The notes below the pieces were generated by a model that saw only the letters and a program-made list of their open reading frames with translations, had not been told where the DNA came from and did not search any database. Shown in pieces: positions 2,683 to 57,811 of a stretch of DNA of 64,000 nt (within the stretch, counting starts at the first letter, position 1; each line of letters begins with the position of its first letter). The position numbers were made by a program, and so were the translations under genes. Origin of the DNA: Eledone cirrhosa (Eukaryota); the NCBI GenBank assembly GCA_964016885.1, contig OZ024740.1, forward strand, positions 427,056,001 through 427,120,000, written 5' to 3'.

Positions 2683-2747
2683 TATTTCATTATACATATT
2701 TCAAGGACACCAAGTTAAATTATGGTGTGCTTTCATCAGATAAAATA
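2683..2747 (-). ncRNA. Hammerhead ribozyme motif A1 (minimal type I)
   Basis: Minus strand: tattttat-CTGATGA-aagcacacca..tggtgtcctt-GAAA-tatgta-TA-atgaaata. Stems I and II pair. Confidence 0.75.
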
Positions 2748-2902
2748 TAATATAGAGCAGTTTTATAAATAAATATTGACATACCCTTAAAGAATGCAAC
2801 CATTACTGTTGGAAGCTCCGGGATAGTCCGGGAGCTTCCAACAGTAATGGTTGCATTCTTTAAGGGTATGTCAATATTTATTTATAAAACTGCTCTATAT
2901 TA

Positions 2903-2967
2903 TATTTTATCTGATGAAAGCACACTATAATTTAACTTGGTGTCCTTGAAATATGTATAATGAAATA
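2903..2967 (+). ncRNA. Hammerhead ribozyme motif A2
   Basis: tattttat-CTGATGA-aagcacacta..tggtgtcctt-GAAA-tatgta-TA-atgaaata. Confidence 0.75.
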
Positions 2968-3615
2968 AATATGGTTTTATAAATATAGTTTCCATTTGTT
3001 AATATCGTATTTTTACTCCAATTATTTGTTGAGTGCTTTATATCAGTTATAAAAATATTTGCTTGTTATATCCCAACAATCTAAATAGAACTTTTACATA
3101 TATATATATATATATATATATATATATATATATAGTAATAATAATGAATGTGAAGACTAAAATCTGAAGAGGGCTTGATAAGAATAATGTAAATATCAAA
3201 TATATAAAACCATAGAGCAAATGCTTAAACTTTAATCTGTTATTTTAAAAAGTATAAATAAATACGTAGCGATCTCTAGGGTAAAAAAATAGAATTAATT
3301 AGAGTTACTTCCCGTAGGCATTATAAATAGACGAGACTTGTGTTTCTTACTCTCTTATTCGCTGCCGGCATCGTTCTGACGAGCAGCTCTCTATACTCTG
3401 GCGACTACTTCGGAACTGAATACTATATGTACAGAGCATATCACCTCTATCTTGCATGCCCGGATTACTTCATCTTTATTTCTCAAGTGGTTGGATACCA
3501 GCGGTATCTTCCGGAGAAGATTAAACCAATAAACCAATTCACAAAACTGGTGACACCGACGTGATATTTCCTCATGGACACATGTTTTTGTCAGAGATGA
3601 CACATATATATATAT

Positions 3616-3840
3616 AAGGAAAGATATATTTAATTTGCTGGTAATTCAACAAATTTATTTATAACAGATTCGAAGCACTCGACAAGTTTCCTGGAGTATA
3701 AAATCAATGATATTAATAAATGGAAACTATATTTATAAAACCATATTTATTTTATTATATATATTTCAAGGGTACCAAAAATCTTTGGTACGCCCTCATC
3801 AGATAAAATACAAAATTTGTTTTATAAATAGTGACATACC
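3616..3840 (-). mobile_element. Family A pLTR fragment with long 3' tail
   Basis: Homologous to 56384-56612. Abuts (TA)n at about 3615. Confidence 0.8.
3748..3810 (-). ncRNA. Hammerhead ribozyme motif A3
   Basis: Minus strand: tattttat-CTGATGA-gggcgtaccaaa..tttggtaccctt-GAAA-tatata-TA-ataaaata. Perfect 8-bp stem I. Confidence 0.8.
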
Positions 3841-4495
3841 CGAGAAACCAGACCTTATCAGTTCAGGTTCCAAACGGAACATGGCTGTAGACATGACACT
3901 TTTCAGAGCTCAGTGGTTAATGGGGGGGGGGGGATTTTCTTCAAATTGAATATCTGGTTTGGATGCTTGCAATAATGTGTATTCCACTCTAAAAACCCAA
4001 TGGTTATGTGGTGGTATTAAACCGACTGAGGTATTATGCCTGCCACCCAAGTAGGTGAAAGAACGGTTGAACTTAGAATGCAATGAGCTGAAACAACTAC
4101 CGTGATGTATCTCATTCAAGGCTCTATCAATTCTTCCAATCTATCTCTCTGTACTGACCCATTATTTTCTCAATTCCATTAGGATGAAAAATAAAGTTTG
4201 TCCTCCGCGAGATTTTCACTCGGAGAACAGAGAGTTGGAATAAATACGGCAAAGAATTTTATCCCAAACGATCCAACCTTATGGAAACATGAGGCAGGAA
4301 ATATATCCAAATACGGGTGGGAGGCGTCAGTAATATTCATAGAAATACCTGGAATTTGGTTAGATATTTTCTCATTAGTAATCGGAAAGATATATGTGAT
4401 GTGAAAAAACATTTAAATATAATACAATGAAGCCTTCTAAGACGAAAAACTAATGATCATGCATTTGGATATGTAAAACAAATATGGTTTCTTAT

Positions 4496-4645
4496 ATAGG
4501 CACAAGGTCATCGATTTTGGAGGAGGCGAAAGTAGATTTAATCGCCCCCAGTGCGTGACTGGTACTTTATTTTATCAACCCCGTAAGGATGAAAGGCAAA
4601 GTTAACCTTGGCGAGATTTGAACTCAGATAATAAAGGGCCATAAA
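4496..4645 (-). mobile_element. tRNA-derived SINE family 1 fragment
   Basis: ggcacaagg..ggtactttattttatcaaccccgtaaggatgaaaggcaaagttaacc..gatttgaactcag, shared with more than 10 copies in the window. Confidence 0.8.
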
Positions 4646-54308: not shown

Positions 54309-56102
54309 ATATAAATTAAAAATGTAATATATAACTCATCTTATTAAACCTATCGATAAATCATTAGATTCCTTAATACGACTGCCAAAAACTCTCTTAA
54401 ATGAAGAAAAACTTTTTTCCTTAAAACTTTTTTCCTTATAAAAAATTGTTTTCCTTAAAAATTTTTTTCTTAAAAATTTTGTCATTAAAAGTTTTCCTTG
54501 AAAATTCTTTTAGATAAACATACTGAAAGTTAAAAAGAAAATGGGTATAAAAAATTAAGATAAACATACTGAAAGTTAAAAAAAAAAAAGGTTTATTGTT
54601 AATTCCTCTGATGGATATAAAAAATTATAAAAAATTATAATTCATATTTTATACTGTGTTTTTTCTATATATTTTTCTATATATTTTTAAAATTATATTG
54701 CTTAAAAATTACATATTTTTATAATTATATTGGTTAAAAATTACATTGCTTAAAAATATAATTCCTTCTAAAATTATATAATTATATCTTTTTTAAAAAT
54801 TGTAATTCCTTTTAAAATTATAATCCTTTTTAAATTATAACTCATATTTTATTTTATATTATGTATTTTCTATTTATATATATATATATGTATATGTGTA
54901 TATGTATGTGTGCATATGTATATATATATATATATATATATATATATATATATATATATATATATATATATATATATATATATGTATGTATGTATATGTG
55001 CGTATGTATGCATATATGTATGTCTGTGTATATATATATATATCGAAATGTATAATTTGAATACATTCTACGAATGAACTCATATAAAAGGTATATTACG
55101 GTTTATGCTTTAGATATATTCTTATGAAAAACTTTCAACATTAAGACGTTATAGTAAACAAACTTATATTTTAACAGTCACAACTGTATAACAGGTGGAT
55201 TTATAAAATATATAAAATTCATAAAATTATAACTTACTATAAAATAATATAAGGTTCTCTTATAATCTTAACTTTTTTTATCATCTTAACTTTTATAGCA
55301 TATAATCCTTAGAGGTATCTAAATTACAAATATATCAATAAATTTTCCATCACGCTGTATTGCTATTACTAAGAAGAGATTTTTCTTCGCTAAAATCTCT
55401 GAAAATTCCTATATTTTAAACATATATTTTGCTATTTCTTATAAGTTTTATTGTTAATTGAAAAATTTTACATTTAATTGTTGGTTGACAATTAATAATA
55501 AATTTATGTAAGGTTAAGTAATAATAACATATATATATATATATATATATATATATATATATATATATATATATATATATATATATATATGTGTGTGTGT
55601 GTGTGCATATATATATTTTTTTTTAATTATATATTCTTTTAAGAATATATAGATCTCAATTTTAAATTTTTAATTTTTAATTTATAGATCTCAATAATTT
55701 AATCAAATTTAAACATTAGATAAAACTCTCCGGTTATTACTATTTATTTATTTATTTATTTATTTACTTCGCCTAATTCATCCAACATATATTTATTTTT
55801 TCGCTTCATCATCTCATAAAATTACGTTAATACAACACTCTCTCACTTAGGGTGTTCTCTCTTTCTCTTTCTATTCATTGTTTTTCTTTCGACTCTCTTT
55901 TTCCTTTTCCTATTATTTCTTCCCTATTCCAACGGCTTAATTTCAATGTAGGGGATTTAAACCTTTCCGACACTAATTTACATAATAGACCACTAATAAA
56001 ATTAGTAACCCCACTATCCGGGACTATCCGGGAGCTTCCAGCCGACATGGTTGCATTCTTTAAGGGTATGTCAATATTGGTTTATAAAACTGATCTATAT
56101 TA

Positions 56103-56167
56103 TATTTTATCTGATGAAAGTGCGCCATAATTTGCTTTGGTGCCCTTCAAATATGTATAATGAAATA
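56103..56167 (+). ncRNA. Hammerhead motif A8 (catalytic G12 mutated: CAAA)
   Basis: tattttat-CTGATGA-aagtgcgcca..tggtgccctt-CAAA-tatgta-TA-atgaaata. Confidence 0.65.
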
Positions 56168-56523
56168 AATATGGTTTTATAAATATAGTTTCCATTAGTT
56201 AATATATATATATATATATATATATATATATATATATATATATATATATATATATATATATATATATGGAAGACGTAAAATAAGAAAATTTTAAAAATTA
56301 AAAATTAACTTACTAAAATTTTCACTCGTAAATATACTAATTCTCTCTCTCTCTCTCTATATATATATATATATATATATATATAAGCAAAAGGGATATT
56401 CAATTTGTTAGTAATTCAAGAAATATAAATGTTTATAACTGATTCAGAGCACACGACAGGTTTTCTGGACTATAATATTCAATGATATTAAATAAATGGA
56501 AACTATATTTATAAAACCATATT

Positions 56524-56585
56524 TATTCTATTATATATATTTCAAGGGCACCAAAAACTTTGGTACGCTTTCATCAGATAAAATA
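56524..56585 (-). ncRNA. Hammerhead ribozyme motif A9
   Basis: Minus strand: tattttat-CTGATGA-aagcgtaccaaa..tttggtgccctt-GAAA-tatata-TA-atagaata. Confidence 0.8.
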
Positions 56586-57750
56586 CAAAGTTTGTTTTAT
56601 AAATGTTCACATAACCAAGAAAAGATACCTTAATGGTTCAAGTTTTTCTTGGATAGTGAAGGGAAAAGAGAAGAAAAGTCAGATATTTCAAATTATTAAG
56701 ATGAGTATGCAAATGAAGTTGAGGTATAGGGCTGAAAAAACGTTATTTTAGACGCTATGCATAATTTAAATAATTAGGATACATGTATGTATGAGTAGGA
56801 AGAAGAAGAAAAGAAAGAAGAGCTTGTATTTACGTTAATTTAAAAGGAATTAACTTTTTGCGGGAATGGTGGAATATGATTCCAGAATTTTGATCTTCAA
56901 ACTTTCACACATCTTTCGACTAAAATAATATATAATTGAAATTAATCTCACACAAAATAATATATAATTTCTCTATATATTTTCTGAGTAAATCATTTAT
57001 CAAATTTAACGGTTAAACACAAGATTGGAGTTATCTTTCCCTTTTCAATCGTGCAAACATAAACATTATATTATAATATAATATGTATGATAAACTATAT
57101 AACTTCGATAAATTAACAATATTCTGAAAACATTTTCAATGTTGGAACAAAATATTCGAATCTACAAATTGTTCTCCTCTTACAACTTTAACTACCTATT
57201 TTTTTATGTAAAATGCAAAATCAACTTCCTTCGTAACTCATATTAGAAATGTAAACAACTAATAATTGTAAATTATTTCTATTTCTATAATACTTATACA
57301 TGCACAATTATTAATCTATATAGATATTTATATACTCACAACCTGTTGTAATATAATAAGATAAAATCAACTTACAACCATAATTCGTCATATAATCTAA
57401 TTGATTATATATAAAATATTATAACTCATAATATAGCTAAATAAATATAAATTCTGGAATCATATTCCACCATTCCCGCAAAAAGTTAATTCCTTTTAAA
57501 TTAACGTAAATACAAGCTCTTTCTTTTTTTTCTTCTTCCTACTCATACATAGATGTGTCCTAATTATTTAAATTCTGGATAGCGTCTAAAATAACGTTTT
57601 TTCAACCCTATACCTCAACCTCATTTGCATACTCATCTTAATAATTTGAAATATCTGACTTTTCTTCTCTTTTCCTTCACTATCCAAGAAAAACTTGAAT
57701 CATTAAGGTATCTTTTCTTGGTTATGTCAAAATTTATAAAACAAACTTTG

Positions 57751-57811
57751 TATTTTATCTGATGAAAGCGTACCAAAGTTTTGGTACCCTTGAAATATAT
57801 ATAATAGAATA
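57751..57811 (+). ncRNA. Hammerhead ribozyme motif A10
   Basis: tattttat-CTGATGA-aagcgtaccaa..ttggtaccctt-GAAA-tatata-TA-atagaata. Confidence 0.8.

Follow-up and report, generated by a model that had tools for sequence, protein, structure and literature searches.

We analyzed a 64,000-nucleotide stretch of the Eledone cirrhosa genome (assembly GCA_964016885.1, contig OZ024740.1, positions 427,056,001 to 427,120,000 of the forward strand), hereafter the window, which carries ten copies of an AU-rich motif that a preliminary description had taken for a hammerhead ribozyme family. We consider it probable that these motifs are type I hammerheads in the pseudo-long terminal repeats (pLTRs) of a Penelope-like element (PLE) of the Hydra clade, and that they self-cleave after an AUA triplet as dimers paired through stem III. 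Judged by its sequence, the family is best classed as a known kind, the Hydra-clade PLE pLTR hammerhead. Its variant features are the AUA triplet, a C-H mismatch in stem II, loop-less covarying palindromes in stem III, a very large number of copies and a tail that is long and structured.

The hammerhead fold and its conservation

The ten copies sit at the positions first described, five on each strand:

2683–2747, minus strand: hammerhead copy with AUAUGUAU as stem III and a short 3′ end (+48 nt) running into (TA)n; inverted partner is 2903
2903–2967, plus strand: hammerhead copy with AUAUGUAU as stem III and a long tail (+138 nt); cleavage predicted at 2959/2960
3748–3810, minus strand: hammerhead copy with G-U as the closing pair, AUAUAUAU as stem III and a long tail (+139)
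34879–34944, minus strand: hammerhead copy; N7 is A; long tail (+138); within the 685-nt arm 34830–35514
37468–37533, plus strand: hammerhead copy; N7 is A; in the inverted arm 36898–37582; short end (+48)
37869–37927, plus strand: degenerate hammerhead copy; two bases gone at the base of stem II
38457–38527, minus strand: divergent copy of the AUGCGCAU group; solo fragment flanked on both sides by (TA)n
56103–56167, plus strand: hammerhead at the 3′ end of an element bearing an open reading frame (ORF); G12C (CAAA); C-to-U at stem II position 4
56524–56585, minus strand: hammerhead copy; long tail (+146); inverted partner is 57751
57751–57811, plus strand: hammerhead copy; stem III AUAUAUAU; predicted cleavage at 57803/57804; short end

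All ten are present, but they represent about seven insertions, and they are not ten independent witnesses because three inverted pairs are found among them (2683/2903, 97.6% identical; 34879/37468, 99%; 56524/57751, 93%, with arms at 56471–56890 and 57449–57875). They are insertion ends, truncated and in many cases inverted, that lie in (TA)n, and most copies in the genome, including the inverted pairs of the window, are likely inert. Two of the ten are damaged, namely 37869, with its two lost bases, and 56103, which carries the G12C change and is predicted to be dead (the position numbering and the role of G12 being general knowledge on hammerheads). The latter copy had been proposed as a negative control for cleavage assays of 57751 and 37468, and is a poor choice because it belongs to another subfamily than either. 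The bare pattern CTGANGA..GAAA has 16 matches in the window against 2.2 expected, a number reached by none of 100 shuffles. A covariance model built from 32 copies recovers exactly the ten window copies at 59–89 bits, with the next match at 18.8; seven of the ten were in its training set (six, plus 57751 as locus L001).

Read from 5′ to 3′, a copy consists of distal stem I, an internal loop, an 8-bp stem I, CUGANGA, stem II, GAA, the stem III segment, A17 and the returning strand of stem I. Stem II is built of 3 bp followed by the C-H mismatch and a variable hairpin, and the stem III segment comprises 8 self-complementary nt, from A15.1 to U16.1. The type I fold is borne out, as core and NUH triplet stand in type I order; CUGANGA, GAAA and NUH are all found in nine of the ten copies, the exception being 56103 with G12C. 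The layout GAAA-6 nt-UA given in the preliminary description is present, but its 6 nt belong to the 8-nt self-complementary stem III, which had gone unnoted. The stem II variants listed there hold in part and do not cover 34879/37468 and 38457; likewise, a stem II base of aag/ctt or agg/cct leaves out ggg/ctt in 3748, aaa/ttt in 38457, and 37869, which is two bases short. An A-U pair closing stem II was found in eight of the ten copies, but it is not family-wide, as G-U takes its place in two. At stem II position 4, seven copies have C-C as the pyrimidine mismatch, one has C-U and two have U-C, one of the U-C cases being the out-of-register copy 37869.

One exact hammerhead pattern gave 84,187 matches in the 3.0-Gb genome, and its reversed control gave one. 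The sub-pattern of the main group accounts for 35,874 matches and that of the GGAC group for 11,340, while 23,233 matches have a base other than A at 15.3, and 94 of 100 of these among the matches listed are AUGCGCAU. Older, more divergent subfamilies (e.g. G000:C1:20499641) have a long stem II and AUACGUAU palindromes. Among 193 distinct copies, stem II is closed by A-U in 140, by G-U in 30, by U-U in 13 and by G-C in 2, and within the GGAC group by G-C in 6 of 24; A-U is therefore a subfamily state, not a family trait. The usual G10.1-C11.1 closing pair, which is not obligatory in type I hammerheads, is not kept here. At stem II position 4 a near-invariant 5′ C faces C, U or A, and G stands in this place in 491 of the 84,187 matches. 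Only 11 matches of a genome-wide pattern search change both 15.2 and 16.2, so AUA is family-wide.

The keeping of the hammerhead fold by selection between subfamilies is well supported by a tree of the 193 copies and an alignment of 32, which also substantiate the earlier claim that differences between copies preserve pairing and amount to real covariation. Left out of the tree were 41 loci picked as aberrant and copies with less than 20 nt of stem II or with short flanks. On branches with at least three tips there are no changes at C3, U4, G5, A6, G8, A9, G12, A13, A14, A15.1, U16.1 and A17, and two changes at N7, the core position first described as free to vary; the tips mutate at all positions, as expected of dead insertions. 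On the subfamily branches the 18 stem pairs change 41 times, pairing being kept by 34 one-sided and 5 two-sided changes and broken by 2, compared with 487, 5 and 160, respectively, for 284 non-structural column pairs (492 of 652 kept). The MAFFT alignment holds 27 of 46 representatives (mainly those with indels or multiple lesions were dropped) and five further window copies. In it, 95.8% of cells pair and 10 of 20 pairs show double changes (7 of 8 in stem II, 2 of 4 in stem III and 1 of 8 in stem I); none of 500 shuffles reaches its score and 8 of 500 reach its pair count, and slid control structures pair at 38–53%. Moreover, when four natural copies from separate groups are compared, the ribozyme segment shows 80–94% identity, partly fixed by the search pattern, against 52–60% in the upstream flank and 49–61% in the tail.

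A TAYGTCA motif lies 25–40 nt upstream of most copies (2866–2872 in the window) and is kept in the main and GGAC groups, the flanks being otherwise near background. This motif could be a promoter site or a tertiary partner. An upstream GGTATGT motif was considered as a splice donor and dropped, several subfamilies having no GT.

The carrier element

The link to the pLTRs of Penelope-like elements, suggested from the start, is confirmed by ORF loci and by a full element. Two features of the window belong to the carrier:

52515–54308, plus strand: 5′-truncated ORF of a Hydra-clade PLE with reverse transcriptase (RT), CxCx5C linker and GIY-YIG-type endonuclease; 597 codons from stop to stop
54309–56102, plus strand: 3′ untranslated region (UTR) joining the ORF to hammerhead 56103; shares homology with the 3′ UTRs of further ORF-bearing copies

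The element sequence of this ORF starts at about 52575, and copy 56103 is the 3′ end of the truncated element, because this homology to other ORF copies covers the DNA from the stop codon to 56103. A C-terminal remnant of a PLE ORF lies at 36852–36908 on the minus strand, with copy 34879 about 1.9 kb downstream of it. The protein of 52515–54308 has no Pfam match and its PDB sequence search returned no matches; one of its homologs matches RVT_1 weakly. In the genome this ORF has 75 matches, many of them without stops, and 65 homologs were found at 32–40% identity.

The Hydra clade has been defined by DKT, RWK, CxCx5C, CxxC before E, CxH after N and insertion into (TA)n (PMC8557442). In ten ORF frames we found DKT in nine, CxCx5C in nine and CxxC-E in all ten, together with CxH after N, (TA)n targets and RWR or RWT in place of RWK. 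The intact frames, of 743 codons, are a single ORF with RT followed by a C-terminal GIY-YIG-type endonuclease, with YRDD and YVG motifs. From these ORF motifs and the (TA)n/pLTR structure, the carrier is assigned to the Hydra-clade PLEs; the Naiad clade was rejected because the endonuclease is C-terminal.

In a survey of 30 ORF loci with 1.5-kb flanks, six carried the motif in sense orientation about 700 nt upstream of the match, six carried it in sense 1.3–1.5 kb downstream and eight carried it clearly antisense upstream; ten loci had no motif within these flanks. Locus L196 is a full element, made of an inverted pLTR, a pLTR, an intact 743-codon ORF, a pLTR and (TA)n, and its predicted cleavage sites are 4,297 nt apart. 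One hammerhead precedes the ORF by about 185 nt and another is found at the element 3′ end, and both the tandem and inverted pLTR structures and the position of the hammerhead in the pLTR are as in the Hydra clade. The identity of the linked ORFs is 74–82% within the main group and 48–53% between the main and AUGCGCAU groups, and partial ORF matches stand at 53–72% beside gtacca copies and at 40–61% beside GGAC copies (one or few loci each). The hammerhead family is linked to at least four divergent ORF lineages. A metagenome scan with the intact ORF gave 597 pattern matches, none of them confirmed.

The window also contains an imperfect palindrome (79%) at 52233–52575, directly before the truncated ORF and outside the hammerhead family, as well as broken frames of retrotransposons that lack long terminal repeats (non-LTR), with RVT_1 and zf-RVT matches at 26549–29271 (+) and 60922–62626 (−), and a 30-bp unit repeated about 226 times in an array at 10378–17200.

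Stem III, insertion ends and rival readings

The self-complementary 8-mers of stem III are maintained in four forms, AUAUAUAU, AUAUGUAU, AUGCGCAU and AUACGUAU, of which three are perfect palindromes and one is a wobble form. Within a monomer, pairing would be limited to two A-U pairs enclosing four bases, against 8 bp in a dimer, and the central bases are adjacent and unable to pair within one molecule. In the 193 copies the centre is U-A in 96, U-G in 69 and C-G in 27, and along with the C-G centre the flanking pair switches from A-U to G-C. The third perfect palindrome, AUACGUAU, accounts for 882 matches, which belong to several distinct subfamilies; centres of A or C followed by a base other than G amount to 881 of the 84,187 matches and are scattered over all groups among the 100 matches listed. 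This covariation of a loop-less central pair points to dimer pairing. In folding calculations the monomer stem III has a predicted pairing probability of at most 0.004, and closing it costs 2.9–3.5 kcal/mol relative to the open form. Short palindromic stem III hammerheads of PLEs have been viewed as dimers (PMC4209133; PMC6765202), and the dimer pattern of this family fits that published view.

Main-type insertions have bimodal 3′ ends, with 85 of 170 located 40–59 nt and 47 of 170 located 130–149 nt past the predicted cleavage site, and those of the AUGCGCAU group are like them. Of the inverted pairs around ORF-bearing loci, one arm is usually short-ended and the other long-ended, and in a transcript through such a pair the ribozyme is buried within a single long hairpin. 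The tail between the two ends measures about 90 nt, lies in the 5′ UTR and carries two hairpins, located in the window as follows:

3015–3035, plus strand: tail hairpin 1, ACUC-CAR..YUG-UN-GAGUG; kept in each of the four hammerhead groups
3063–3079, plus strand: tail hairpin 2, UUGUU..AACAA; typically 15–20 nt before the far 3′ end

Hairpin 1 was found in 81 of 107 long or unbounded copies, and hairpin 2, counted from 6 bp upward, in 81 of 99 copies against 25% of shuffles, mostly at the said distance from the far end and with the variants UUGUUG/CAACAA, UUUAUUGU/ACAAUAAA and UUCAUUGA/UCAAUGAA. Both occur in every hammerhead group and are also present in the tails of 3748, 34879 and 56524, and they are common to lineages whose proteins are about 50% identical. 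When RNAalifold was run on the tail alignment, the ACUC/GAGU stem alone was recovered and showed no double changes, the second hairpin being misregistered there. By analogy with the anole element, the tail hairpins are likely protein-binding or initiation signals.

We propose that read-through transcription of a tandem element would yield two same-sense hammerheads about 4 kb apart, and that these would assemble into a double hammerhead via an 8-bp intermolecular stem III, possibly aided by the protein of the element. Cleavage by the double hammerhead would release unit-length RNA or mRNA. Reverse transcription would use RNA that is uncleaved or re-ligated and begin 45 or 135 nt past the site, and every inserted end would carry an intact hammerhead because this start lies downstream of the site. 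More tentatively, and with considerable doubt on our part, the stem III palindrome could be a lineage-specific dimerisation code which, together with the hammerhead, the C-H mismatch and the tail hairpins, makes up one RNA module that cuts, circularises and presents the RNA for reverse transcription. Pairing of AUAUAUAU with AUGCGCAU would give two A-C mismatches.

Several points weigh against cleavage as a stem-III-paired dimer under selection. The Fisher p values of the tree comparison (nominally 0.002 and 0.0001) are optimistic, as non-independent pairs were taken as independent; collecting copies by patterns that fix part of the core favours intact cores; several AU-rich columns of stem I are also changeless; and most of the pair-keeping changes are transitions. 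When six copies were tested, the double hammerhead lay below two folded monomers in only four, and the active dimer was the cofold minimum in none. The position of the insertion ends downstream of the site means that the copied RNA was intact across it, and no pile-up of 5′ junctions was found at the cleavage site, where 297 candidates, mostly small indels, compare with 112 at a control offset; about 7 of 30 candidates inspected by eye were true junctions. Cleavage may instead serve translation, turnover or circle formation. Furthermore, AUA was the slowest triplet tested in ELVd (PMC1636495), and in the anole PLE, as reported in PMC11167929, hammerhead mutants had no effect on insertion and cleavage was protein-dependent.

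The same element and fold could also cleave as a monomer, with a 2-bp stem III closed by a tetraloop and aided by tertiary contacts between the C-H mismatch and the internal loop of stem I, the palindrome being incidental. Most invertebrate retrozyme hammerheads are described as self-cleaving efficiently with a helix III of two pairs and a tetraloop (PMC7229834), stem I does continue past the internal loop in our copies, and the 5′ C of the mismatch is replaced by G in only 491 of the 84,187 matches, as such a contact would predict. We nevertheless regard monomer cleavage as unlikely, since both monomer pairs are A-U, with the very low predicted probability given above (≤0.004), and since the palindromes are maintained and their loop-less centre covaries, neither of which a tetraloop needs. 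Slightly less likely again is that the fold is a structural or protein-binding signal, recognized with the two tail hairpins by the PLE protein, that cleaves rarely or never in vivo. The insertion junctions without a cleavage footprint, the insertion ends downstream of the site, the low in vitro activity reported for PLE hammerheads (PMC4209133) and their dispensability for insertion in vitro (PMC11167929) would all suit such a signal; it is at odds with the invariance between subfamilies of every catalytic nucleotide and of the NUH site while N7 varies, a signature which argues that catalysis is under selection.

The reading of an ordinary AT-rich repeat end that resembles a hammerhead by chance and covaries through shared descent is largely refuted, and we give it very little credence. 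It can appeal to the relatedness of the window copies, which include inverted duplicates, and to the failure of any Rfam hammerhead model to match, but not to the exact 11-nt core and NUH in type I order, to the compensatory changes on separate branches of the tree, to conservation between groups whose flanks are near background, or to a position that agrees with published Hydra hammerheads.

Detection, known systems and significance

Rfam scans of the window contained no hammerhead among 150 of 169 matches listed, and two further scans had none either. The family does not reach the gathering threshold of Hammerhead_1 (RF00163), and the genome matches to this model that were inspected (5 of 18) are another family. 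The minimal descriptor of Cervera and De la Pena sets no condition on the closing pair and accepts any NUH but needs GAAANNUH, an unbroken 3–7-bp stem II and a loop of at most 10 nt (PMC4209133), and our re-implementation of it gave no matches in the window. The expectation that standard descriptors would miss the motif is thus correct for Rfam and for the minimal descriptor, but the latter misses it because of stem III length and the invariant C-H mismatch, and not because of the A-U pair or AUA. Nor do these hammerheads, with their short palindromic stem III, deserve the name minimal in the sense of those authors.

Some further matches were observed along the way. Sub-threshold Rfam microRNA matches (mir-297, mir-1277 and others) all fall on (TA)n or (CA)n microsatellites and look like artefacts. 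A second hammerhead-like family occurs at 18178–18206 (−), 18680–18708 (+), 36100–36128 (−) and 34250–34277 (−), with the layout gtca CUGAAGA, an extra G, a short stem II and GAAA GAAC UH gac; it is also inverted and ends in (TA)n, and one copy is nested between the arms of 34879/37468. A third family (L258–L262, e.g. G000:C3:10277077-10277121) is a canonical GUC type I hammerhead above the Hammerhead_1 cut-off and adjoins (TA)n.

Short-stem-III PLE hammerheads cleaving as dimers were reportedly described by Lunse et al. That type, as summarised in PMC6765202, shares with the window family the palindromic short stem III and the association with PLEs. The 26 rows of Hydra PLE hammerheads tabulated by Craig et al. 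(2021; PMC8557442) are likewise type I, located near the 3′ end of a (TA)n-targeting PLE, with a short near-palindromic helix III, often A at H17 (12 of 26 rows) and also non-G-C stem II bases (A-U in Hydra-1_oBim, U-U in many families). All 26 rows, however, are C15.2-G16.2 (GUH), whereas the window family is U15.2-A16.2 (AUA) and is further set apart by the invariant C-H mismatch, unseen in that table, the long variable stem II and about 84,000 copies. Its ORF lineage is separate from Hydra-1_Obim in a by-eye comparison with the proteins of the same supplement. AUA, first described as unusual, is so in its absence from these rows, but it is known from active plant hammerheads, having been reported in ELVd(+), sCYDV-RPV(+) and cscRNA(−) (PMC1636495).

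The PLE hammerheads of Cervera and De la Pena (2014; PMC4209133) resemble ours in their pLTR site, the many consensus families per genome, the solo and opposite-strand pairs and the predicted dimer action. The window family differs from their minimal type in that 6 nt separate A15.1 from U16.1, 10.1 follows A9 without an extra nucleotide and G10.1-C11.1 is not conserved, apart from the descriptor giving no matches in the window. The Poseidon PLE of Anolis (Frangieh et al., 2024; PMC11167929) similarly has two insertion ends past the hammerhead, an AT-rich target and a stem-loop near the start of reverse transcription; its tail is 30–40 nt, whereas that of the window family is about 90 nt, in the 5′ UTR, with two hairpins conserved across lineages. 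Animal non-LTR retrozymes, too, are described as carrying a high-copy, pLTR-related type I hammerhead (PMC7229834; bioRxiv 10.64898/2026.07.22.740005), but they form head-to-tail arrays of 150–450 nt, whereas the window copies are dispersed, often inverted, truncated ends of coding elements. Identity with these retrozymes was rejected on the dispersed and inverted copies and their tie to a coding element; arrays elsewhere in the genome were not searched for. No description of this hammerhead family was found in the literature on octopus hammerheads, on Naiad or Penelope-like hammerheads, or on Penelope in octopus genomes, and the available text of the O. vulgaris repeat paper makes no mention of ribozymes.

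The known chemistry and the ribozyme class are unchanged by this family. It nevertheless ranks among the larger ribozyme families of an animal genome and is invisible to Rfam and to the published minimal descriptor. Its natural variants, about 84,000 in number and spread across at least four ORF lineages, bear on the role of PLE hammerheads. The intact elements and the natural compensatory pairs in the loop-less palindrome make the dimer and tail models testable on natural sequences. If the dimerisation code were true, co-resident Hydra PLE lineages would process only their own RNA, and if the RNA module were true, unit-length RNA would be presented for reverse transcription from two sites 90 nt apart.

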